Of a DNA stretch of 13,786 nucleotides, positions 2,846 to 13,786 are shown in pieces (position 1 is the stretch's first letter; each line of letters opens with the position of its first letter). The DNA lies in contig CAZXFU010000005.1 in the NCBI GenBank assembly GCA_964640345.1, positions 17,370 to 31,155 of the forward strand, written 5' to 3'. Below the pieces are notes generated by a model, which was not told where the DNA came from, ran no database searches, and worked only from the letters and a program-made list of their open reading frames with translations. The translations under genes were made by a program, and so were the position numbers. The DNA comes from an uncultured Eubacteriales bacterium (lineage in GTDB: Bacteria; Bacillota; Clostridia; TANB77; RGIG9151).

Positions 2846-4714
2846 ATGTACAAATTGTTGGATAGTATACAGAAACCGAGCGATATAAAAAGGTTTAACA
2901 ATATGGAATTAGAGGCTTTGGCTCAAGAGTTGCGTGACTTTATGCTAGAGAACATTTCAAAAACCGGTGGGCATGTTGCGTCAAATTTCGGAATTGTTGA
3001 GCTTACTTTGGCATTGTTTAAGATTTTTGATTTTGATAATGACAAGATTATTTTTGATGTTGGGCACCAGAGTTATCCATATAAAATTCTTACCGGAAGG
3101 AAAGATGATTTTCCTACTTTGAGGCAGTATAACGGTATTAGCGGATTTCCTAAGCGTGAAGAAAGTAAGTATGATTTTTTTGATACGGGGCATAGTAGTA
3201 ATTCGATTTCTGTTGGACTTGGAATGGCGAAAGCAAGAGATATCCAAATAAGGGATTACAATGTGATTTCTGTTATCGGAGACGGTGCTTTAACCGGCGG
3301 TATGGCATATGAGGGGTTAGATGCTCTTGGTTTTAGCAAGACAAAAATGATTATTATACTAAATGATAATCAAATGTCGATTTCACCTAACGTTGGAGGA
3401 TTGTCTGAGTATCTTAACATGGTTAGGATCAATAAAAGATACAATGAATTAAAAAAGAGTGTTCAAAATAGGTTGGATGAAAAAAATGTTATTTTGAAAT
3501 TGTTAAAGAAGATAAAAAACAGTATAAAGACGCTATTTGTTCCGTCTATGTTTTTTGACGATTTGGGTATTAGATATATTGGACCGATAGACGGTCATAA
3601 TATTTCAGAGATGTCTGAGATTTTCGAAAAAGCAAAAGAGCTTGATGAACCTGTTGTTATACATGTTGTGACTAAGAAGGGTAAAGGCTACAAGTTTGCG
3701 GAAGAGAATCCTAATAAGTTTCATGGGATTTCCCCTTTTAATCCTGAGAACGGAGAAGTTTTAAGAGAAAGTGACAAAGTTACATATTCTAAGGCGTTCG
3801 GAAATGCAATGGTAGATATTGCCAAGAATAACAAAAATGTTGTGGCTATAACTGCAGCCATGACGGAAGGAACAGGATTAAGCAGTTTCTCAAAGCTATA
3901 TCCTAATAGATTTTTTGATGTTGGAATTGCTGAACAGCATGCAGTTTCTTTTGCGGCAGGTCTTGCTACAGAAGGTCTTCAGCCTGTTTTTGCGGTTTAT
4001 TCTACATTCTTGCAAAGGGGTTTTGACCAAGTTATGCAAGATGTTTGTATGCAAAATTTGCCTGTTGTTTTTATGCTAGATAGAGCAGGACTTGTTGGAA
4101 ATGATGGAGAGACACATCAAGGTGTTTTTGATATTTCTTATCTTTCTATGATACCTAATTTGACTATTTTAGCTCCAAAGTGTGCGGACGAAATGGAAAT
4201 ACTTTTAAAGTATGCTCTTTCATTAAAGAAACCTGTTGCTATAAGGTATCCAAGGGGGGGAGATGATAGTTCCCTTGGGTTAAAGCCAATTGTTAGAGTT
4301 GAACAGGGGAAATGGGAGATCTTATCTAAGGGAGAGAGGGTTGCTTTAATTGCAACCGGTAAAATGGTTGGTAAGGCTATGGCATCAAAGAAAATATTAG
4401 AAGAAATCGGCATAAATCCTATGATTATAAATGCTACTTTTATAAAACCGCTTGATGTTGCTTTAATAAAGCGTTTAATTAGGGAGAAATATAATATTAT
4501 AACTTTGGAAGATAATGTTGCTATTGGCGGTTTTGGAAGTTTAGTTTTAAAAGTGCTTTCTAATGCAAGATATAAAGGAAGTTTCAGAATGATGGCTTTT
4601 AAGGATAGGTTTATTTCACAGGGGAGTGTGGAAGAGCTTATGAAACAGGAAAAAATGAGTGTGGAAGAAATTGTTAAAATTACTAAAAAACTTTATAATT
4701 CTAAGAAAGCTTAG
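2846..4714 (+). CDS. dxs: 1-deoxy-D-xylulose-5-phosphate synthase
   Basis: The 622-aa protein has the DXS-typical N-terminus (LLDSIQKPSDIKRFNNMELEALAQELRDF) and GHQSYPYKILTGR. It carries the thiamine-diphosphate motif GDGALTGGMAYEGL...NDN, plus the transketolase-like pyrimidine-binding block (FDVGIAEQHAV) and C-terminal domain. Confidence 0.95.
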   Translation: MYKLLDSIQKPSDIKRFNNMELEALAQELRDFMLENISKTGGHVASNFGIVELTLALFKIFDFDNDKIIFDVGHQSYPYKILTGRKDDFPTLRQYNGISGFPKREESKYDFFDTGHSSNSISVGLGMAKARDIQIRDYNVISVIGDGALTGGMAYEGLDALGFSKTKMIIILNDNQMSISPNVGGLSEYLNMVRINKRYNELKKSVQNRLDEKNVILKLLKKIKNSIKTLFVPSMFFDDLGIRYIGPIDGHNISEMSEIFEKAKELDEPVVIHVVTKKGKGYKFAEENPNKFHGISPFNPENGEVLRESDKVTYSKAFGNAMVDIAKNNKNVVAITAAMTEGTGLSSFSKLYPNRFFDVGIAEQHAVSFAAGLATEGLQPVFAVYSTFLQRGFDQVMQDVCMQNLPVVFMLDRAGLVGNDGETHQGVFDISYLSMIPNLTILAPKCADEMEILLKYALSLKKPVAIRYPRGGDDSSLGLKPIVRVEQGKWEILSKGERVALIATGKMVGKAMASKKILEEIGINPMIINATFIKPLDVALIKRLIREKYNIITLEDNVAIGGFGSLVLKVLSNARYKGSFRMMAFKDRFISQGSVEELMKQEKMSVEEIVKITKKLYNSKKA

Positions 4715-4739
4715 ATGGTTCTAGTGCAATGTTTTTGCT

Positions 4740-5882
4740 TTATTTTAACGCCGGACGAGTCGGATCTATTACTTTTTCTGCATCAAAGTAATTTTCTGTT
4801 AAATACTCTTTTCTCTTGAATAAGTTGTATCCGTCTAGGTTAAAGCGTGTCATTATTACGTTGTCTCCGTCATGTAGTGATAATTCCGGTGTTTTTTGGA
4901 CAGGACAGAAGATGTTAAACCCTTTATTTACTATATATCTGTATCTTTCGTCATCAGTTTTGAACCTAAATCCGAATGGGGAGATATAGATGTTTGTTTT
5001 TCCTGTTACTGGCTCAATATATTTTATCCAGCGTTCTGTGTCGTGCTTTAGCTGTTCCATTGTTACTGTGTAGTTTTTGAAGTATTGGTTATGTGTGTAA
5101 CTGTGGCATGCAAATCTCCAACCTGTTTCTTTTAGTTTGTTTGCTACTTCTGTTGCATCACTTATTGCTTTTTCAAGCTCTTTGCCGGTTAGGTCTGTTA
5201 TTCTATATCCTAATGCTCCTTGATATCCGGTTAATGCTAATATTCCTTTTGCACCATGGAATGAGAATTCGGGATGTTCTTTTACAAAGTCGTCTAATAT
5301 TGGCATTACGTCGGCTTCTCTTGAGATTATTGTCTCGCCGTTTGGAGTTACTATCTCGTTTGCAACTTCTCCATTTTTGTCTAATACGAGTTTTGTCGCA
5401 AATCCATCGGGTTTCATATAGTCATAGTAATTTACATCATCTATGGATAATACTAACGGTTTTCTTCCTTCAGGAAGATAGATGTCTTTTTTCTTTATCT
5501 TTGTAGGGTCTGCTGGGTCTTGCTCAATTAATTCTTCTATATCATATAACATGTATCCGCGGTCTAGTAATTCTGGTAACATTTTTTTGAATTCTGAGAC
5601 CGTTGTCATCCAATAGTTATAGCCGTTTGCTCGACTGTCGTTATCAAATGCTAAGTCGGTGTAAGCGATTAGGCTGTGAAAGAATACATGATGCACAGGT
5701 CCTTCATATTTTACCAGAATTTCGGGTTCTTCTTTTTCTTCCTGAGTGCTATCTGAAGTTTGAATGTTTGAATTTGGATTTTCACTTGCGAATGCACTTT
5801 CTTTTGATTTTTTTATGTACGTGATTAGTCCGACACATAATATAACTACTAAAGTTATTATAATCATTGCCCTTTTTTTCAT
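4740..5882 (-). CDS. Membrane-anchored polysaccharide deacetylase (NodB/CE4-like) family protein
   Basis: The start is taken at MKKRAMIIITLVVILCVGL (ATG 5882-5880), which has GGAGG at 5894-5890 and a 7-nt spacer. The track's longer start at 5924 has no RBS. There is an N-terminal signal/anchor helix, a DD-type motif (LVLSIDDVNYYD) and a His motif (ACHSYTHNQ) typical of CE4 deacetylases. The gene is convergent with dxs, with a 25-bp gap and no obvious hairpin. Confidence 0.75.
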   Translation of the reverse strand: MKKRAMIIITLVVILCVGLITYIKKSKESAFASENPNSNIQTSDSTQEEKEEPEILVKYEGPVHHVFFHSLIAYTDLAFDNDSRANGYNYWMTTVSEFKKMLPELLDRGYMLYDIEELIEQDPADPTKIKKKDIYLPEGRKPLVLSIDDVNYYDYMKPDGFATKLVLDKNGEVANEIVTPNGETIISREADVMPILDDFVKEHPEFSFHGAKGILALTGYQGALGYRITDLTGKELEKAISDATEVANKLKETGWRFACHSYTHNQYFKNYTVTMEQLKHDTERWIKYIEPVTGKTNIYISPFGFRFKTDDERYRYIVNKGFNIFCPVQKTPELSLHDGDNVIMTRFNLDGYNLFKRKEYLTENYFDAEKVIDPTRPALK

Positions 5883-6033
5883 TTTTATACCTCCATACTT
5901 AGATTTTTGCACAAAAATTGACAAATTTCAACAGGATTTTTTTGTTAATTGAAAAAGATTTTTAAATTGCTTGTACTTTGTGGTAAATTTTATATATACT
6001 TATATGCAGAGAGTTTTTGAACAGGGGGATAAG
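5883..6033. promoter_or_regulatory. Divergent intergenic region that should hold the promoters for the deacetylase gene (-) and mltG (+)
   Basis: This is a 151-bp AT-rich gap between two divergent starts. A + strand candidate is TTGCTT (5967-5972), N18, TATATA (5991-5996). A consensus TTGACA at 5918-5923 lacks a well-spaced -10. A - strand candidate is TTGAAA-N17-AAAAAT. None is compelling on its own. Confidence 0.3.
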
Positions 6034-7032
6034 ATGAATAGGAGAATTGTGGTTGTTTTGATTTTAGGTGTTGTTTTTTTTACCATATTTTTTGGTATAG
6101 TTACTGTTAAAAATATAGACACAGAAATGTTAAATAGCGAGAAGATTATTGTTATAAAGCCAAGTAGTGGTGCCAAGGCTATTGCAGGTGTTTTAAAAAA
6201 TAGCGGTGTTATAAAGAGCAAGTTTTTCTTTATAAATTACATTAAGAGGCAGGATGTTGCCACAAAATTAAAACCCGGTACTTATAAGTTTGGACCAGGT
6301 AAGGTTACATTTGATGATATATTAAATAAGTTACTTGAAGGCGAACAGGAAGAATATATAACGGTTACTATTCCGGAGGGGTATACTGTGGCTCAAATTG
6401 CAAAATTATTTGCAGATAAAGGGATTGTTACAGAGGAGAATTTTTTGAAGTATGCTTCAAGTTTAGATATTCCGTATGATTATATTCCAAAAGGCAGTGA
6501 TTATAGGCAACTTGAGGGATATTTATTCCCAGATACATATCAAATACCTGTTTCGTGGAATGAAGAGAAGATAGTTGATTTACTACTTTCTGAATTTGAT
6601 GCCCATTGGTCTGATGAATATGATAAGAGAGCTAAGGAACTTGGTTTTTCTGTTAATGAGATTGTGACTATTGCTTCGCTTATTGAACGTGAAGCTAAGG
6701 TTGACAAAGAGAGACCACTTATTTCTAGTGTTATTCACAACAGACTAAGAAAGGGGATGCTACTTCAAATTGATGCTACCGTTCAGTATTTGTTACCTGA
6801 GCAAAAGGGGAGACTCTTGTATAAGGATTTAGAGGTTGATTCTCCATATAATACTTATAAATATGAGGGTCTTCCGCCAACAGCAATTGCAGCACCGGGA
6901 ATATCATGTATAGAAGCAGCATTATATCCGGACGATACTGAGTATTATTATTATAGGGCAAAGGCTAGCGGAAATGGAGAACATTATTTTTCAAAGACGT
7001 TTGAGGAACATGTAAGTTATGCTGGCAAGTAG
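6034..7032 (+). CDS. mltG: Endolytic murein transglycosylase MltG (YceG-like family)
   Basis: I prefer the ATG at 6034 (MNRRIVVVLILGV, a TM anchor), which has AGGGGGA at 6023-6029. The track's start at 5971 has no RBS. YceG signatures are present: LASLIEREAKV (catalytic Glu region), QIDATVQY, and SPYNTYKYEGLPPTAIAAPG. Stop TAG at 7030-7032. Confidence 0.9.
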   Translation: MNRRIVVVLILGVVFFTIFFGIVTVKNIDTEMLNSEKIIVIKPSSGAKAIAGVLKNSGVIKSKFFFINYIKRQDVATKLKPGTYKFGPGKVTFDDILNKLLEGEQEEYITVTIPEGYTVAQIAKLFADKGIVTEENFLKYASSLDIPYDYIPKGSDYRQLEGYLFPDTYQIPVSWNEEKIVDLLLSEFDAHWSDEYDKRAKELGFSVNEIVTIASLIEREAKVDKERPLISSVIHNRLRKGMLLQIDATVQYLLPEQKGRLLYKDLEVDSPYNTYKYEGLPPTAIAAPGISCIEAALYPDDTEYYYYRAKASGNGEHYFSKTFEEHVSYAGK

Positions 7033-7095
7033 GTAAAATGGGGTTACTGAAAAAATAGTTAAAATTTATGTAGATTTTTGTCGAAATGATATATG

Positions 7096-7124
7096 TTGAA
7101 AAAAGATGAAAAATATAGTAAAAT
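7096..7124 (+). promoter_or_regulatory. Putative sigma-A promoter of the NRPS gene
   Basis: TTGAAA (7096-7101), a 17-nt spacer, then TAAAAT (7119-7124). It lies about 30 nt upstream of the ATG at 7157, and the RBS GGGAGGG is at 7144-7150. Motif match only. Confidence 0.45.
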
Positions 7125-7156
7125 ATTAATGGCAATAGTTTTTGGGAGGGATTACT

Positions 7157-8446
7157 ATGAAGAATCTATATGGTTTAACTTATTCGCAGAAAAATATATT
7201 GAATATAAGTAATTTGTATCCTAATTCGGCAATAAATTGTATTTCTGGTACTTTTAAGATTGTTGGAAGCGGTAACGCAGAAGCATTAAAAAGAGCCATA
7301 AATTTATATGTAAAAGATAACGACGGATTAAGGATAAGGATTACTAAAGATTCCGGCGAGTTTTTGCAATACATAGAAGATTATAGTGAAATTACTCTTG
7401 AAGAAATTGAATTTGATAATGAGAGAGAGCTTTATATATGGGAAGAGATAGAGAGTAAAACGACTATTCCTACGTTAGATAATGCTCTTTTTTATTTCAA
7501 AATTATAAAGATAAAGAATGGTGATATTGGTTATTTTGTAAAATGTAATCATATAATAAGTGACGCTTGGACTTTTGTTGTGCTTGTTAATGGAATTATG
7601 GAGTATTATAAGGAGATTGTTAGCGACAATAAAGTTATTGAGATTATAAAGCCGTCAATTGTTGAGCATATTGAGGCTGAAGAAGCTTATTTTAAGTCAG
7701 AAAGGTTTAAAAAAGATAAGAAGTATTGGGAAGATAATTTAGATGATATAAATCTAAAGACGATTTTGAAGAAGAGGAACAAGAACTCTATTGAAGCAAA
7801 GCGAACAAGTGTTGTTCTTCCTTCTAGGCTTAATGAGAAGATATATGAATACTGTAAGGAGAATAAGACTTCGCCGTTTAATTTGTTTGTTTCTGCTTTG
7901 GCTATGTATGTAAAGAGAGCGACTAATAAGGAAGATGTTATTATTGGTACTACGACTTTAAACAGAACTAATGCTAAGGAAAAAGAAATGTGTGGTATGT
8001 TTGTTAATACGTGTCCTATAAGAATTAAAATTAAGGATACGATGAATTTTAATGAGGTTGTAAAGTCACTAAATATTTCTTCTATGTCACTTCTTCGTCA
8101 TCAAAAATATCCTTATGAGCTTCTGACTGAAGATTTAAGAGAAAAGTATGATTTTAAAGATAATTTGTTCGATATAGTATTAAATTATCAGAATGCTAAG
8201 TTTGAGAGCAGTGACGAGACAGGCATTAATTATACTACTCGTTGGCATTTTAGCGGTTCTCAGGTTGAGTCATTAATAATAAATATAAATGATAGAGAAG
8301 ATTCAGGACAGCTTATTGTAAGTTATGATTACTTAAAGGATTGCTTTAATTTTAAGGAAATTGAGTACTTACATAAGCATATGATCGGTCTACTTTGGCA
8401 TGCTCTTGATAATGATGCTAAGAATATTGCGAATATTGAAATGTTA
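7157..8446 (+). other. NRPS condensation domain C1 (aa 1-430), atypical active site
   Basis: Core motifs occur in order: TYSQKNIL (C1), GLRIRI (C2), CNHIISDAWT (C3, 7544-7573; the consensus is HHxxxDG), CGMFVNTCPIR (C5, 7991-8023), HQKYPYE (C6, 8099-8119). The catalytic second His and the Asp are retained. The first His is Asn and the Gly is Ala. Confidence 0.85.
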
Positions 8447-11400
8447 CCGGAAGAGGAACAGGATAGGATTTTAACGAGGTTTAATAATGTTGAACTTAGT
8501 GATGAGTCAGCAGATATTCAGGTTGAAAAACGTAAAAACAGAAATGTTAAGGCGTATATTTTGGATTCAAACAGAGTGGCTTTACCTATAGGTATACCTG
8601 GAGATTTATATGTTAGCAGGAAGATAAGTGGTGACGAGATTGAAAATCCTTATGAACCAGGCAAAAAGTTATATAAGCTCGGGGTTATTGCAAGATGGTA
8701 TCCTAAGGGAGATATTGAGATATTAAATAGCGATGACGAGAGGCTTCTTGTACCTAAGTTTAATATGAAACGTCCTGTAAAGACTATTAATACTGTTTGG
8801 ACAGGAAGTTTTGTTACAGAACCTGTTAAACCTTATGTTAAGAGATTTGCCAGAGTTTTTAACTATAGAATAAAAATGGATTTTGCGGATTACAATCAAG
8901 TACTTCAAGAGTTAGTGGATAAAAGTAGTAAGATAAATACAAACAAAGACGGAATAAATGTAATTTTGTTAAGGCTTGAAGATTATATTAGAGATAATTC
9001 GGGTAGTGCTAGTGAGAAGATAGCTATAGTCGAGGAAACTACAAAAAGGCTTATTGATTTACTTGCTAAGGTTGAGAGTACTACGTTGTTTGGCATATTT
9101 AAGAAATCTAACAGAATTAGCGACGAAAGAATTCTTAATTCTATAGAAGAGAATAGTGAGAAAATACTTTCTGGTATTAAGTCCAATAAGAATATTTTTG
9201 AGTTAGATATTAAAAATATAGTGGCTGATTACTGTATAGAGAATAAATTTGATGATGAAAATGATAAAATTGCTCATATCCCTTATACTAAGGAGTTTTA
9301 TGCGGGGCTTTCGGCTGAAATTTGCAGAAAGATAGTTGCACTTACAAGAAAACCATACAAGGTTATTGTACTTGATTGCGATAATACTTTGTGGGGTGGT
9401 GTTTGTGGTGAAGTTGGTACGCATGGCATCGAAATTTCAGAAGGGTTTAAGTCGTTACAGAGATTTGTGCTTAATAAACAAAAAGAAGGTTTTTTACTTG
9501 CAATTGCAAGTAAAAACAATTTTGAAGATGTTCTTGATGTTTTTGATAATAATGATGATATGCTATTAAAGAGAGAGGACATTGTAAATTGGAAAGTAAA
9601 TTGGGATAATAAGGCTGATAATGTAAAGAAAATGGCGAAAGAACTTAATTTGGGCATAGATAGTTTTATTTTCTTAGATGACAATCCTATGGAATGTATG
9701 AATATGATGACCGCTATTCCTGAGGTGCTTACGTTGAATGTGCCATCTAAAGAGGCCATTCCTATGTTTTTAAGGCATTTATGGGCTACGGATAATTTGA
9801 TTGTTACTGCCGAGGACAGGGAAAGAAGTAAGAGATATATAGAAGAGCAAAAGAGAAAAGATGCTGAAAAAAGCGTTAATTCTCTTGGAGAGTTTATTAA
9901 GGAGTTAAATATAAAGGTTAGCATGAGGGAAATTGCCGAGTGTGAAGTGCCGCGTGCTTCACAAATGACACTTCGTACAAATCAGTTTAATCTTAGTACG
10001 ATAAGAAGAACTGAAAAGGATTTGGAGGAGCTTATAGGGGATGACTCGTATAAAGTTTTTGTAATTGAGGCAAATGACAAGTTTGGAGAGTATGGAATAA
10101 TCGGACTTGTAATTTTGAAAGTTGAAGATGTTATAAAGGTTGATACTTTCTTATTAAGTTGTAGAATTCTTGGCAGGAATATTGAAAACATTATATTAGA
10201 CGGGATCAAAATTTTTGCTGATGGTATTGGCAAGGAAAAGGCTGTGTTTGAGTACATAAAGTCTGAGAAAAATAAGCCTATACTAAATTTTTTAGACAAG
10301 ACACCATTTTTTTGTTCGAAGAAGGGAACAGATTCAGCTGTTTATGAACTGACTATGAAAGATGTCCCTCAGATTGAAGATGTGGAATTATTATATAATA
10401 GGGCTTTTGAAAAAAGGGCAGTATGCGAAGAAAAAATAGAAGTAAGTGCACCTGTTATAAAAGAGAGTGATACAAGTTCTAATAACGGCGAGCTTATTTT
10501 GGTTAACAACAAGCTTATAAAAAGTGCTACTAATAAGGAATATCTGGTTGTTTTAAGAGAATATACAGGTCAGAAGATTATTGACTCAATAGAGAATAAG
10601 ATTATAAAAGGTGAATACAGAAAGCCGACTACAGATACGGAAGTAAGACTTTGTCAGATTTGGTGTGATGCCTTAAAATTAAAGCAAGTCGGTATATCAA
10701 ATGATTTCTTTGAAATCGGTGGAGATTCGCTTTCCGCTGTTTTTGTGTTATCTCAAATATTAAAAGAATTTAAGGTTACACTTGGCCTTACAGATTTGTT
10801 CACTGCTAAAACTATAAGAGAGATTGCTGAACTTATTGACAAGAAAAAAGTTGAGGAATATCTCCCTATTCCGAATGTACCAAAAAGCGAGTACTATGAA
10901 TTGTCTTCTGCACAGTCAAGAATGTTCTTAATAAATCAGATTGAAGGCGGAAGTGCTAAATATAATGAAACTCAGATGCTAAGGGTAAAGGGAAATTTAG
11001 ATAAAGATAGGCTTGAAAATGCGTTTAAAGAGATAATAAAGAGGCATGAAATTTTAAGAACAGGATTTTTCATGGTAGATAATAAACCTGTTCAAAAAGT
11101 CTTTGATAGTGTGCCTTTTAAAATTAAATATTTAGATGCGGACGAAAGCGAATTAGATGAGATAAAGAACGAGTTTGTGAAGGCATTCAACTTGGGTAAT
11201 CCGCCTCTACTTAGAGTGCTTTTGGTTAGGATTAATGACCATGAACATATGATGTTTTTTGATATACACCATATTGTTATAGATGGCACGTCGTTTGGTA
11301 TTTTTATAAATGAAGTTTTAAGTTTATATGAAGGAAGAAAGCTTTGTGAGATTAAGAAGCAATATAAGGATTTTGCTGCTTGGCAGAATAATGAGGCTAA

Positions 11401-13786
11401 ATCCGAAACAATAAAAAAACAAGAAGATTTTTGGATGAAGCAGTTTGAAGATGAAATTCCTGTATTGAATCTTCCGACAGACTTTGCAAGACCGCTTGTT
11501 CCAAGTGGCAAAGGAAATAAAGTTTATTTTACAATCGATAAAAAGACTACAAAAAGTATAAAAAATATATGTCAAGAAACAGAAACGACGATGTTTATGT
11601 TTTTATTTGCAGTTTATAATGTTTTATTGCACAGATATTCTAATCAAGAAGATATTGTGGTTGGAATTCCTGTTGCGGGCAGAAATCATCCGGATACTGA
11701 AAATATGCTAGGTATGTTTATAAACACTCTTCCAATAAGAACTGCTCCAAAGGGAAACATGACTTTCGTTGAGTATTTACTGCAAGTAAAAGATGTGATT
11801 ATAAAGTGCTTAGAAAATCAAGAATTCCAATACGAGAAGATTGTTAATGTGTTAAATGTTACAAGAGATATGAGCAGAAATCCTTTGTTTGACGTTATGT
11901 TTTCGCTTCAAAACATGGACATTCCAAAGACAAAGACCAGTGATTTGGAATTTGAACAACTTGAGTTTTCAAATGGTACTTCAAAGCAAGATTTAAGTAT
12001 GTTTATTAGAGAAGTTGATGATAAACTGGAAATTGAGACTGAATTTAGTACGGATTTGTATAAGGCTGAGTCAATTAATCGTTTCAATGAGCATTATTCT
12101 AATTGCATTAAAGCAATTTTAAGCAAGCTTGACGCGAAGTTAGGCGAGTTTGATTTCTTAACTCGTGATGAAAAGAGTGTAATTAAGGCATTTAACAGTA
12201 CTTCATATGTATATAATGAAAGCTTAACGGTAAAAACACTTTTTGAAGAGCAGGTTAAAAAGACGCCAAATAATATTGCAATAGTTTTTGGCGGCGAAGA
12301 AATATCATATTTAGATTTAAACAAAAGGGCTAATAGGGTTGCAACAATATTACGTGAAAACGGTATAGGACCTAATAAATCTGTTGGTGTTATGCTTGAC
12401 AGATCGATAGAATTAATCGTTGCTTTGCTGGGTGTTGTTAAAGCGGGTGGATTTTATGTGCCGATAGATCCTGAGTATCCTCAAGAGAGAATTGAGTACA
12501 TATTAAATAACAGTAAGACAAATGTATTACTTACGCAAGAAAGATTAAAAGATAAGGTTGAATTTTCGGGTAATAAGTTATTGATGAGTAAGGAATTAGG
12601 TGTTGAAGATAAAAATCCTGAGTCGATAAACGATAAAGATGATTTGATTTATACAATTTATACGTCAGGTTCAACAGGAAATCCTAAAGGAGTAATGCTT
12701 ACTATAAAAAATATTGTTAACTTTATTTTTGGAGTGAAGAACAGAATTAAATTTACACAAGAAGAAGTTATACTTGGTATTACAACTGCATCCTTCGACA
12801 TTTTCGTACTTGAGACTTGGTTGCCGTTATGCTCCGGATTAAAGATTGCACTTACTTCTGCTTCAGAGCAGTTAAATGTAAGAAAAATAATAGAGGTTAT
12901 AAAGAATAATAGAGTTACAACGGTGCAAATGACCCCTTCAAGATTAAAACCTGTTTTGCAGTTTGGAAGCACGGATGATTTCGCTAATTTACAAAATGTA
13001 TTAGTAGGTGGGGAACCGCTTACTCCTGAAGTTTTGAAGTTGGCTCAGGAAAAGACAAGTGCGAAGATATACAATATGTATGGCCCTACTGAAACTGCGG
13101 TTTGGTCTTCAATAGCAGATATGACAGACACAGAAGAAATTACGATTGGTGAGCCTATTGCAAACACGACTTTCTACGTTTTGAATGATCAAGGAGCAAT
13201 TCAGCCATTTAATGTAGAAGGGGAATTGTGCATTGGCGGTAGCGGACTTTCCGCAGGTTATAAGGACAGAGAAGATTTAACGAAAGATAAGTTTATCGAT
13301 AATGCTTTGGTGGGAGAGAAGATTTATAAAACCGGAGATAAAGTGAAATTAACCGATGAAATAAAACTAAGATTTATTGGAAGAATTGATAACCAGATTA
13401 AGTTTAGAGGTTATAGAATTGAAGTCCAGGATATTGAAAGCAACATTACTAAATATAACGGAATAGATAAATGCGTGGTTGTGCTGAATAATAAAGGCGA
13501 TCAACTATGTGCATATTATGTGTCTGATTTTGAGATAGACGATAAGCTTATAAAGGAGTATTTGTTTAATAAATTACCAAATTATATGATACCCACATAT
13601 TTTGAAAGGTTAGAGGAATTTCCGTTTACTCCAAATGGCAAAATTGATAGGAAAAAATTGAAAGAGAAGGCTGACAATACTGAATTCGCTAATGAAAATT
13701 CTGAGATTGACGGTGAAATTCAAGAAAAACTTTGTAAATGTTTCCAAAAGGCTTTGGATATTCCAACAATAAATAAGAATGAGAAT
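7157..13786 (+). CDS. Nonribosomal peptide synthetase, N-terminal 2,210 aa (3' end outside the window); C - A relic - FkbH-like - T - C - A(Gly) - T...
   Basis: This ORF is not in the supplied track. The ATG at 7157 follows GGGAGGG with a 6-nt spacer. Manual translation of every codon from 7157 to 13786 found no stop, and 6,630 nt is exactly 2,210 codons. It contains two sets of condensation core motifs, one full adenylation motif set A1-A10, GGDSL carrier motifs and HAD-IIIC/FkbH motifs (see the domain entries). Confidence 0.95.
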   Translation, partial: MKNLYGLTYSQKNILNISNLYPNSAINCISGTFKIVGSGNAEALKRAINLYVKDNDGLRIRITKDSGEFLQYIEDYSEITLEEIEFDNERELYIWEEIESKTTIPTLDNALFYFKIIKIKNGDIGYFVKCNHIISDAWTFVVLVNGIMEYYKEIVSDNKVIEIIKPSIVEHIEAEEAYFKSERFKKDKKYWEDNLDDINLKTILKKRNKNSIEAKRTSVVLPSRLNEKIYEYCKENKTSPFNLFVSALAMYVKRATNKEDVIIGTTTLNRTNAKEKEMCGMFVNTCPIRIKIKDTMNFNEVVKSLNISSMSLLRHQKYPYELLTEDLREKYDFKDNLFDIVLNYQNAKFESSDETGINYTTRWHFSGSQVESLIININDREDSGQLIVSYDYLKDCFNFKEIEYLHKHMIGLLWHALDNDAKNIANIEMLPEEEQDRILTRFNNVELSDESADIQVEKRKNRNVKAYILDSNRVALPIGIPGDLYVSRKISGDEIENPYEPGKKLYKLGVIARWYPKGDIEILNSDDERLLVPKFNMKRPVKTINTVWTGSFVTEPVKPYVKRFARVFNYRIKMDFADYNQVLQELVDKSSKINTNKDGINVILLRLEDYIRDNSGSASEKIAIVEETTKRLIDLLAKVESTTLFGIFKKSNRISDERILNSIEENSEKILSGIKSNKNIFELDIKNIVADYCIENKFDDENDKIAHIPYTKEFYAGLSAEICRKIVALTRKPYKVIVLDCDNTLWGGVCGEVGTHGIEISEGFKSLQRFVLNKQKEGFLLAIASKNNFEDVLDVFDNNDDMLLKREDIVNWKVNWDNKADNVKKMAKELNLGIDSFIFLDDNPMECMNMMTAIPEVLTLNVPSKEAIPMFLRHLWATDNLIVTAEDRERSKRYIEEQKRKDAEKSVNSLGEFIKELNIKVSMREIAECEVPRASQMTLRTNQFNLSTIRRTEKDLEELIGDDSYKVFVIEANDKFGEYGIIGLVILKVEDVIKVDTFLLSCRILGRNIENIILDGIKIFADGIGKEKAVFEYIKSEKNKPILNFLDKTPFFCSKKGTDSAVYELTMKDVPQIEDVELLYNRAFEKRAVCEEKIEVSAPVIKESDTSSNNGELILVNNKLIKSATNKEYLVVLREYTGQKIIDSIENKIIKGEYRKPTTDTEVRLCQIWCDALKLKQVGISNDFFEIGGDSLSAVFVLSQILKEFKVTLGLTDLFTAKTIREIAELIDKKKVEEYLPIPNVPKSEYYELSSAQSRMFLINQIEGGSAKYNETQMLRVKGNLDKDRLENAFKEIIKRHEILRTGFFMVDNKPVQKVFDSVPFKIKYLDADESELDEIKNEFVKAFNLGNPPLLRVLLVRINDHEHMMFFDIHHIVIDGTSFGIFINEVLSLYEGRKLCEIKKQYKDFAAWQNNEAKSETIKKQEDFWMKQFEDEIPVLNLPTDFARPLVPSGKGNKVYFTIDKKTTKSIKNICQETETTMFMFLFAVYNVLLHRYSNQEDIVVGIPVAGRNHPDTENMLGMFINTLPIRTAPKGNMTFVEYLLQVKDVIIKCLENQEFQYEKIVNVLNVTRDMSRNPLFDVMFSLQNMDIPKTKTSDLEFEQLEFSNGTSKQDLSMFIREVDDKLEIETEFSTDLYKAESINRFNEHYSNCIKAILSKLDAKLGEFDFLTRDEKSVIKAFNSTSYVYNESLTVKTLFEEQVKKTPNNIAIVFGGEEISYLDLNKRANRVATILRENGIGPNKSVGVMLDRSIELIVALLGVVKAGGFYVPIDPEYPQERIEYILNNSKTNVLLTQERLKDKVEFSGNKLLMSKELGVEDKNPESINDKDDLIYTIYTSGSTGNPKGVMLTIKNIVNFIFGVKNRIKFTQEEVILGITTASFDIFVLETWLPLCSGLKIALTSASEQLNVRKIIEVIKNNRVTTVQMTPSRLKPVLQFGSTDDFANLQNVLVGGEPLTPEVLKLAQEKTSAKIYNMYGPTETAVWSSIADMTDTEEITIGEPIANTTFYVLNDQGAIQPFNVEGELCIGGSGLSAGYKDREDLTKDKFIDNALVGEKIYKTGDKVKLTDEIKLRFIGRIDNQIKFRGYRIEVQDIESNITKYNGIDKCVVVLNNKGDQLCAYYVSDFEIDDKLIKEYLFNKLPNYMIPTYFERLEEFPFTPNGKIDRKKLKEKADNTEFANENSEIDGEIQEKLCKCFQKALDIPTINKNEN
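8444..8740 (+). other. Vestigial adenylation-domain relic (aa 430-528)
   Basis: LPEEEQDRILTRFNN (8444-8488) is a typical C-A junction and A-domain leader. About 20 aa later comes AYILDSNRVALPIGIPGDLYV..., then KLYKLGVIARWYPKGDIEILNSDDE (8546-8740). This mirrors the xYVLD...P.G..GELxIGG / YxTGD / DG.IEflGR.D region (A6-A8). The roughly 330 aa carrying A1-A5 are absent, and GG, TGD and GRxD are mutated. Confidence 0.65.
8777..10369 (+). other. FkbH-like domain (HAD superfamily subfamily IIIC), aa 541-1071; predicted glyceryl (1,3-bisphosphoglycerate-derived) loading unit
   Basis: The HAD motifs are intact: motif I, VLDCDNTLWGGV (DCDNT at 9374-9388); motif II, LLAIASKNN; motif III Lys in NWDNKADNVKKMAKEL; motif IV, FIFLDDNPME (DD at 9677-9682). 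The N-terminal extension typical of FkbH-like proteins is present (WTGSFVTEPVKPYVK...ILLRLEDY). So is the C-terminal acyltransferase-like block, FGEYGIIGLV...FLLSCRILGRNIE (Cys at 10160-10162). Confidence 0.8.
10628..10849 (+). other. Thiolation / carrier domain T1 (aa 1158-1231)
   Basis: TDTEVRLCQIWCDALKLKQVGISNDFFEIGGDSLSAV, with the phosphopantetheine-attachment Ser at 10727-10729. The following helices LSQILKEFKVTLGLTDLF...IREIAELI fit the PCP/ACP fold pattern. Confidence 0.85.
10889..12151 (+). other. NRPS condensation domain C2 (aa 1245-1665), canonical
   Basis: YELSSAQSRMFLI (C1), RHEILRTGF (C2), DIHHIVIDGTS (C3; HHIVIDG at 11267-11287), YKDFAAWQ (C4), LGMFINTLPIR (C5), NQEFQYE (C6), RDMSRNPLFD (C7). 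Confidence 0.9.
12152..13660 (+). other. NRPS adenylation domain A2 (aa 1666-2168), predicted glycine-activating
   Basis: All core motifs are intact: ISYLDLNKRAN, VKAGGFYVPID, YTSGSTGNPKG (12659-12691), SFDIF, NMYGPTE, GELCIGGSGLSAGY, YKTGD, GRIDNQIKFRGYRIE, LPNYMIP, PNGKIDRKKL. Ten specificity residues were read by gap-free alignment to GrsA-PheA numbering and give D-I-L-Q-L-G-M-V-W-K. Confidence 0.9.
13703..13786 (+). other. Start of carrier domain T2 (truncated by the window edge)
   Basis: EIDGEIQEKLCKCFQKALDIPTINKNEN matches the first helix of a PCP (x-E-x-L-x-x-I/F-x-x-x-L...) just upstream of where FFxxGG(H/D)SL would be expected. The Ser motif itself lies beyond the window. Confidence 0.5.

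Follow-up and report, generated by a model that had tools for sequence, protein, structure and literature searches.

An unannotated segment lies between the first condensation (C) domain, C1, and the FkbH unit of a nonribosomal peptide synthetase (NRPS) from an uncultured Eubacteriales bacterium, and evidently descends from an adenylation (A) domain. The NRPS gene is part of a 13,786-nucleotide stretch of contig CAZXFU010000005.1 (assembly GCA_964640345.1, positions 17,370 to 31,155 of the forward strand; "the window" below denotes this whole stretch). We consider it probable that the segment is a domain-replacement relic of the A domain of a C-A-T-type module (T, carrier domain), that loading in this module passed to FkbH, and that the surviving piece, which spans motifs A6 to A8, was retained in a putative role as structural adaptor.

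The NRPS open reading frame (ORF) starts with an ATG at nt 7157, behind GGGAGGG, and stays open past the end of the window, giving 2210 amino acids (aa). Pfam and NCBIfam place along it, in order, C1, the unannotated segment, FkbH, T1, C2 and A2. C1, FkbH and a carrier domain thus share a single uninterrupted polypeptide from nt 7157, and a frameshift or pseudogene is ruled out by a frame uninterrupted over 2216 codons. A sequence-only reading of the window had called nt 8441-8760, which correspond to aa 429-534 of the ORF, a vestigial A domain and a domain-replacement scar; its translation of this interval is exact. The protein divides as follows:

7157..8440, + strand, aa 1-428: C1, the N-terminal condensation domain (PF00668), with the active-site motif NHIISDA.
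8441..8488, + strand, aa 429-444: C-A interdomain linker or leader, MLPEEEQDRILTRFNN, which aligns column for column with 'LSEKEKxKILYxFNxT' of C-A-T-R proteins; predicted helix.
8489..8542, + strand, aa 445-462: degenerate stub of an A-domain N-terminus, followed by the deletion junction, placed by alignment; predicted local distance difference test (pLDDT) score below 50.
8543..8731, + strand, aa 463-525: A6-A8 relic of the C-terminal beta subdomain of an A-core, up to the hinge, assigned from sequence homology, fold and purifying selection.
8732..8791, + strand, aa 526-545: post-hinge linker, NSDDERLLVPKFNMKRPVKT, poorly conserved; pLDDT below 50.
8792..9361, + strand, aa 546-735: N-terminal domain of the FkbH cassette, opening with 'TVWTGSFVTEP', the point at which free-standing FkbH homologues begin.
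9359..10303, + strand, aa 735-1049: FkbH HAD-type glyceryl transferase/phosphatase domain (TIGR01686, 284 bits against a cutoff of 146.65), with the motifs DCDNT and LSCRILGR.
10646..10837, + strand, aa 1164-1227: T1 carrier domain (PF00550, 54.6 bits), predicted to be loaded by FkbH.
10889..13666, + strand: C2-A2, the next canonical module, with A2 intact (PF00668, PF00501, PF13193 and TIGR01733; C2 aa 1245-1674, A2 aa 1696-~2170).

A Pfam search of the segment returned no match, to PF00501 or any other family, because PF00501 stops just past A6 and PF13193 begins after A8. The linker therefore seems empty in Pfam-based annotation, and "A-less" modules elsewhere may conceal similar relics. 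NCBIfam gave weak matches only, which are suggestive (EntF model, E 1.5e-4). The window's own A2, the comparator proposed in the sequence-only reading, is a distant and poor one: the best path is collinear, and its Smith-Waterman score of 42 was matched or beaten by 225 of 2000 shuffles (p about 0.11), with a BLAST E of 0.086 and a phmmer score of -1.5 bits, neither of them significant.

Broader searches point to A6-A8 throughout. A phmmer search of aa 445-545 against PDB sequences gave 23 matches, every one of them an NRPS A domain at A6-A8, including TycB (9bfd_B 788-867, E 6.2e-8), PheA (1amu 395-433), SrfA-C (2vsq 817-864) and EntF (824-864), as well as McyB, LgrA and GrsB. Against 1.84 billion representatives, phmmer matched 7597 proteins at E<=1e-3. 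One of the best 150 of these 7597 is an orthologue with 78% identity; the other 149 are large multi-domain proteins (3161-7709 aa), each with several matched stretches, and the four stretches inspected are all A-domain A6-A8 and read '..YILD..GELYvGG..ARGY..NPy..'. Single A domains reached 51.6 bits against the segment, with an independent E-value (i-E) of 7.5e-9 at the library size of 1.84 billion. Finally, hhalign aligned a query profile built from relic-bearing linkers only, with no genuine A domain included, to columns 783-868 of an alignment of C-A-T-R synthetases, with a probability of 99.8% and an E of 8.5e-29. A chance or compositional resemblance, which the pairwise result with A2 taken by itself would allow, is refuted by matches that all fall on the same A6-A8 columns (E 6e-8, 7.5e-9 and 8.5e-29), and we give it practically no weight. 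The collinearity with A6-A8 noted earlier is thus borne out, by profile-profile comparison as well, and we conclude from these homologies that the segment evidently descends from an NRPS A domain.

With the segment and the FkbH N-domain together as query, a word-indexed search returned one match, which serves only to mark the FkbH start; with a seven-sequence alignment as query it returned seven short, uninformative fragments. The predicted structure agrees with the A6-A8 assignment. In an AlphaFold2 model of aa 418-556, residues ~462-527 form a set of beta strands at pLDDT 91-96, and the top 50 Foldseek matches of the segment model in the PDB are all NRPS-type A-cores (73-80 columns, root-mean-square deviation (rmsd) from 1.6 Å). 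The input alignments of this model and of a second one, of C1 plus the relic, held genuine A-domain sequences, as fragments in the first case and as whole C-A-T-R proteins in the second.

Alignment to the C-A-T-R synthetases defines which parts of the A domain were kept and which were lost. Upstream of FkbH, only positions 9-456 and 788-868 of the C-A-T-R profile find a counterpart in the window ORF. The C-A linker is retained, as the sequence-only reading had recognized in a normal C-A junction after C1. Of the A domain, the N-terminal ~30 residues ('..YPxdKTIhqLFEEQ') are clear in the related proteins P0003-P0007 and degenerate in the window. Profile positions ~472-787, corresponding to A1-A5, are absent; this gap of ~316 aa is close to the earlier figure of about 330 aa. 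Similarity resumes at '(D)N(V/I)K-YILD' and ends at the A8 hinge ('GDIEYLGR', in the window 'GDIEILNS'), so that the relic follows the pattern KAYILD..LPIGIPGDLYVS..ENPYEPGKKLYKLGVIARWYPKGDIEIL. Within it, the second half of A6 ('GGxGVARGYxxxxELT') is trimmed by 12 columns, which leaves the relic ~11-12 aa short of a normal A6-A8, in keeping with the ~11 aa first reported.

The catalytic residues have also gone. The window reads GDLYVSRK followed by the 12 deleted columns at A6, YKLGV at A7, where the Asp is missing, and LNSDD at A8, where GRxD is missing; the replacement of GG, TGD and GRxD had been described correctly. Moreover, the remainder of A8, A9 and A10 with its lysine, that is, the whole Asub, is lost, and FkbH starts ~20 aa past the hinge. 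This Asub deletion had been missed in the sequence-only reading. The segment likewise has no A1-A5 core of an NRPS A domain, with its P-loop (A3) and binding pocket (A4-A5), and because these required motifs are missing the relic cannot adenylate. The post-hinge linker at aa 526-545 may be a diverged remainder of A8. In the window and in loci L001 and L002 this position reads 'ERLLVPKFNM', which aligns ambiguously, to 'QVKIRGFRI' of A8 or to 'YMVPSFFV' of A9 depending on the alignment; the other relic-bearing proteins have a Lys/Glu-rich linker here.

The ancestry of the module can be traced through the same synthetases. Beyond its own small family, C1 is most closely related to C-A-T-R synthetases of ~1450 aa (40-47% identity over C1). 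The A domains that score best against the relic belong to these synthetases too, and they outscore almost all 754 A-domain stretches in the proteins from the billion-sequence scan. These lipopeptide-aldehyde-type synthetases (P0011-P0121) share the window's C-A linker and its style of A6-A8 sequence, but they have a complete and presumably active A1-A10 and no FkbH, where the window has the relic and FkbH. They retain an intact A domain where the window has the relic, and are relatives of the kind that the sequence-only reading had suggested looking for. Six proteins, P0002-P0007, have the same C-relic-FkbH-T architecture at 42-45% identity. Four of them (P0002, P0003, P0004 and P0006) match the C-A-T-R profile over positions 5-471 (~700 bits) and ~790-867, and after FkbH the profile resumes at 956-1448 with the A-T linker, T and R (~610 bits), FkbH occupying the place of Asub. 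This collinearity on both flanks implies that an FkbH cassette replaced Asub in a C-A-T-R scaffold from which A1-A5 were excised. Judged from these alignments, domain replacement by FkbH swapped into a C-A-T-R scaffold appears well supported, in line with the earlier proposal that FkbH took over loading from the A domain.

We scanned GTDB species genomes with the FkbH region, which yielded 78 loci, and sorted the FkbH units by local hidden Markov models (HMMs). In all 78 loci the FkbH N-domain starts with '(V/I)x(I/V)aaTFTaEP', at aa ~549 of the window protein, and 'DCDNT', HAD motif I (DxDxT), is invariant across the FkbH alignment. If the segment were a genuine N-terminal region of FkbH and not derived from an A domain, its position immediately upstream of FkbH and its conservation in the closest homologues would follow, but fragment P0001 and 15 loci with FkbH at the ORF N-terminus begin at 'TFTxEP' with nothing upstream, 28 loci fuse C directly at the same point (with about 15-25 residues in the junctions printed), and A domains are the segment's only detectable homologues, so this explanation has a negligible chance of being right. 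The segment is evidently not part of FkbH. Most C-FkbH junctions in the genome sample are direct; 12 of the 80 FkbH units have the relic. The relic is the mark of a clade whose members come from metagenome-assembled genomes (MAGs) labelled Clostridia, Bacillota, Deltaproteobacteria and Ignavibacteriales.

The same piece is preserved in a second lineage. Two related uncultured Eubacteriales genomes carry loci (L032 and L036) with a better-preserved relic behind a C domain of a different type, and its boundaries are those of the window clade ('LFEE', junction, 'IDNTK...EYLGK'). The genome of L036 also holds L029, a paralogue with an intact A domain and the architecture C-A-T-C-FkbH-T. L032 and L036 are both collinear with L029 in three blocks, listed here by the coordinates of L032:

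L032 5-481 with L029 4-480: 67% identity; C, linker and A N-terminal stub.
L032 482-560 with L029 797-877: 73% identity; A6-A8.
L032 564-1289 with L029 1517-2242: 84% identity; FkbH and T.

From this three-block collinearity, it follows that the relic form is the intact form without A1-A5 and without Asub-T-C. In a neighbor-joining (NJ) tree of FkbH domains, the window clade (the window itself, L001-L008, L012 and L009) was recovered in 95/100 bootstraps. The FkbH domains of L032 and L036 grouped with relic-less paralogues in 100/100 bootstraps and joined the window clade in 0/100, and the A domain closest to each relic is the one usually found behind its own C type. The simplest reading of these sequence relationships is that relics formed in two independent events, with boundaries that would lie within a few residues of each other: in both lineages they fall after 'FEEQ', before 'IDNxK-YILD' and at the A8 hinge. 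With relic-bearing MAGs of several labelled phyla and a second lineage of identical boundaries, the description of the window's relic as rare did not hold. It is also possible, though we hold this idea only tentatively, that the A6-A8 beta subdomain is an autonomous "platform" element required by some C domains, two independent FkbH replacements having kept exactly this piece. If so, the relics would define a minimal A-domain fragment, together with fusion points, for grafting a non-A loading domain behind a C domain.

Conservation of the relic is on a par with that of its catalytic neighbors. Across seven homologues, mean pairwise identity is 0.64 in the relic core, 0.58 in C1 and 0.65 in the FkbH HAD domain, and it falls to 0.23 in the N-terminal stub and 0.34 in the post-hinge linker. 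Between the window and L001, the proportion of nonsynonymous differences (pN) is 0.153 in the relic, 0.153 in C1 and 0.132 in FkbH, with synonymous sites near saturation. The ratio of nonsynonymous to synonymous rates (dN/dS) in the relic is 0.051 for L003-L004, 0.082 for L003-L006 and 0.128 for the close pair L032-L036. Residues kept in at least 90% of sequences are YILD, PIG, the G and LY of GELY, NP, LY, ARW and GDI, all hydrophobic or turn residues of the fold, while the ligand-binding GGxGxARGY, the A7 Asp and GRxD are lost across the relic-bearing set. These comparisons indicate that purifying selection constrains the relic as strongly as it does C1 and FkbH.

The same data bear on whether the relic is a neutral fossil, a functionless leftover awaiting deletion or randomization. 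The loss of the catalytic motifs would fit this idea, as would the degeneration of the stub and the post-hinge linker and the many C-FkbH junctions, including that of L009 within the same clade, that manage without a relic. A leftover of this kind would not, however, be expected to match catalytic domains in identity and pN, or to show such low dN/dS against saturated synonymous sites, nor would it persist in MAGs labelled as several phyla and be retained as the same piece by the second lineage of L032 and L036. We therefore regard a neutral fossil as unlikely. The sequence-only interpretation survives in its descent from an A domain, the excision of A1-A5 and the takeover by FkbH; its picture of a useless, decaying scar is contradicted by a relic identity of 0.64 and a dN/dS of about 0.05-0.13.

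We propose instead that the relic was kept for its structure. Relative to a C-A-T module, A1-A5 are deleted, and FkbH, with its N-domain and HAD domain, replaces everything past the A8 hinge and is followed by the usual A-T linker and T. The relic would then be a small, independently folding beta module on the C-terminal linker of the C domain, preserving part of the C-A "platform", an arrangement described for NRPS modules (review PMC10510592). FkbH-T1 would be tethered at the old hinge and reach C1 from there. If the module works like those of vioprolide and corramycin, FkbH would load T1 with a glyceryl unit taken from a phosphoglycerate donor, which the reviews give as D-1,3-bisphosphoglycerate, starter-type C1 would acylate the glyceryl on T1, and C2 would pass the product to the amino acid activated by A2. 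The AlphaFold2 model of C1 itself reaches pLDDT ~90, and among its Foldseek matches are the starter C domains RzmA (7c1l, target-normalized TM-score (TMt) 0.89) and CDA C1, a structural resemblance that suggests that C1 is starter-type.

An adaptor role is plausible because the same ~75-residue stretch has been crystallized as a separate chain, and because a comparable enzyme needs its A-like region. In PDB entry 6EBY, the A-core stretch equivalent to the relic is a piece of FscH, a separate chain of 77 aa (6eby_B) bound to FscK. The two cases differ in that the FscH piece was excised by experimenters from an active A domain, and in that no MbtH-like gene is seen near the relic. In the stripteamide synthase StaS, a C domain is joined to a truncated A-like region that is required for activity (bioRxiv 10.64898/2026.06.15.732422), which implies a structural role for that remnant. 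As in StaS, an NRPS-derived starter-type C domain in the window retains a catalytically dead A-domain remnant, and the window's C domain is fused to an A-derived region without adenylation motifs. StaS differs in keeping the N-terminal part of the A domain, with no loading or T domain after it, whereas the window keeps A6-A8, linked to FkbH-T.

The 6EBY complex also raises a different function, in which the relic would be a docking surface, bringing an MbtH-like protein or some other trans-acting partner to the module. MbtH-like proteins bind A domains at the A6-A8 subdomain, the relic matches 6eby_B, the FscH A-domain interface region bound to the MbtH-like FscK, in both sequence and fold, and purifying selection fits any binding function. 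No MbtH-like signature, however, occurs in any frame of the window, nor was an MbtH-like gene found within +/-6 kb at the 78 related loci, bar one spurious match. We hold a docking role of this kind to be improbable.

Several observations weigh against the structural-adaptor interpretation. The relic is not universally required, as 28 loci join C to FkbH directly, and L009, which shares the C type of the relic-bearing clade and falls within it (95/100 bootstraps), has no relic. The A-domain sequences in the input alignments bias the structural models toward an A-domain fold, so that the models are supportive but not independent. In the C1 plus relic model, the pLDDT of the relic drops to 74-84, nearly all Foldseek alignments end after the linker helix, and only 9bfd_B covers both the C domain and the relic (872 columns, gapped, rmsd 8 Å). 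The independent origin of the L032/L036 relic rests on NJ trees, and gene conversion among the many FkbH paralogues that those genomes hold could mimic it. The adaptor role itself is inferred, and contacts of the relic with C1 or FkbH are putative. If the relic proved dispensable, it would still be a clean record of the switch, and little more.

NRPS engineering often fails at domain junctions, and this module is an apparent natural swap of an A domain for an unrelated loading enzyme, FkbH, in which the sequence reveals both the breakpoints of the swap and the fragment of the old domain that selection kept. With L029 and L032/L036 as a before-and-after pair, and with the C-A-T-R relatives, the evolutionary route can be reconstructed and tested.

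Interrupted A domains carry an auxiliary domain embedded after A8, for example a methyltransferase between A8 and A9, which is the same place of entry as that of FkbH here. Such domains keep A1-A10 and stay active, unlike the window's relic, which is without A1-A5 and A9-A10.

C-FkbH-T modules as such are known. In these modules the HAD-type FkbH stands in place of an A domain and loads a glyceryl unit on T, and in vioprolide biosynthesis the upstream C domain esterifies glycerate with a fatty acid (reviews PMC8949500 and PMC10099666). The window shares the C-FkbH-T order of the vioprolide, corramycin and cystomanamide modules and has an FkbH above the curated cutoff. In the papers on those modules, compared here by description only, FkbH simply replaces the A domain and no relic is mentioned. 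The window protein also begins with C1, not with FAAL-ACP. We found no description of an A-domain relic at an FkbH junction in the open-access literature, a search outside of which the original vioprolide and cystomanamide reports fall.

In L009 (CAVYEU010000026.1, ORF 3007-9093), a C-A-T-R-type C domain is followed by FkbH, with the relic and the C-A leader both missing, which looks like a secondary loss of the relic. Many other relic-less junctions (e.g. L046, L013, L010, L024 and L030) read '(L/I)F(S/T)xxEKxxI(E/K)xKR' just before FkbH, and the L046 junction, 'HNIEGKRKSNNINNTTTN', resembles the L032 sequence. Speculatively, direct C-FkbH junctions might descend from relic-bearing ones by further deletion.

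Between FkbH and T, the window protein has a weakly conserved linker of ~110 aa (aa 1050-1160, identity 0.30). At this position, three relic-bearing proteins (P0003, P0006 and P0007; loci L004, L006 and L008) have an extra glyoxalase/VOC-type domain (PF13669/PF00903), which hints at on-line modification of the glyceryl unit.

Upstream of the NRPS, the window encodes a MatE fragment, a 461-aa AMP-binding enzyme, an M50 peptidase, DXS, a deacetylase (minus strand) and YceG. The free-standing AMP-binding enzyme (757-2142, + strand; PF00501, E 5e-29) is encoded on the NRPS strand, 5 kb upstream, and is separated from the NRPS by the housekeeping genes for the M50 peptidase, DXS and YceG. This enzyme could activate an acyl group for transfer by starter-type C1.

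Among the FkbH loci, two uncultured Eubacteriales genomes stand out for an unusual expansion of glycerate-loading modules: OW818645.1 has at least seven separate FkbH-containing NRPS loci (L013, L019, L026, L028, L031, L032 and L041) and OY969939.1 at least five (L015, L016, L029, L036 and L040). The Magnetococcales loci (L018, L023, L027, L034, L037, L043 and L045) form a separate FkbH clade. Upstream of FkbH, they have a ~350-residue match to positions ~7-357 of the C-domain profile, its first three quarters, which may represent a truncated or divergent C-like domain.

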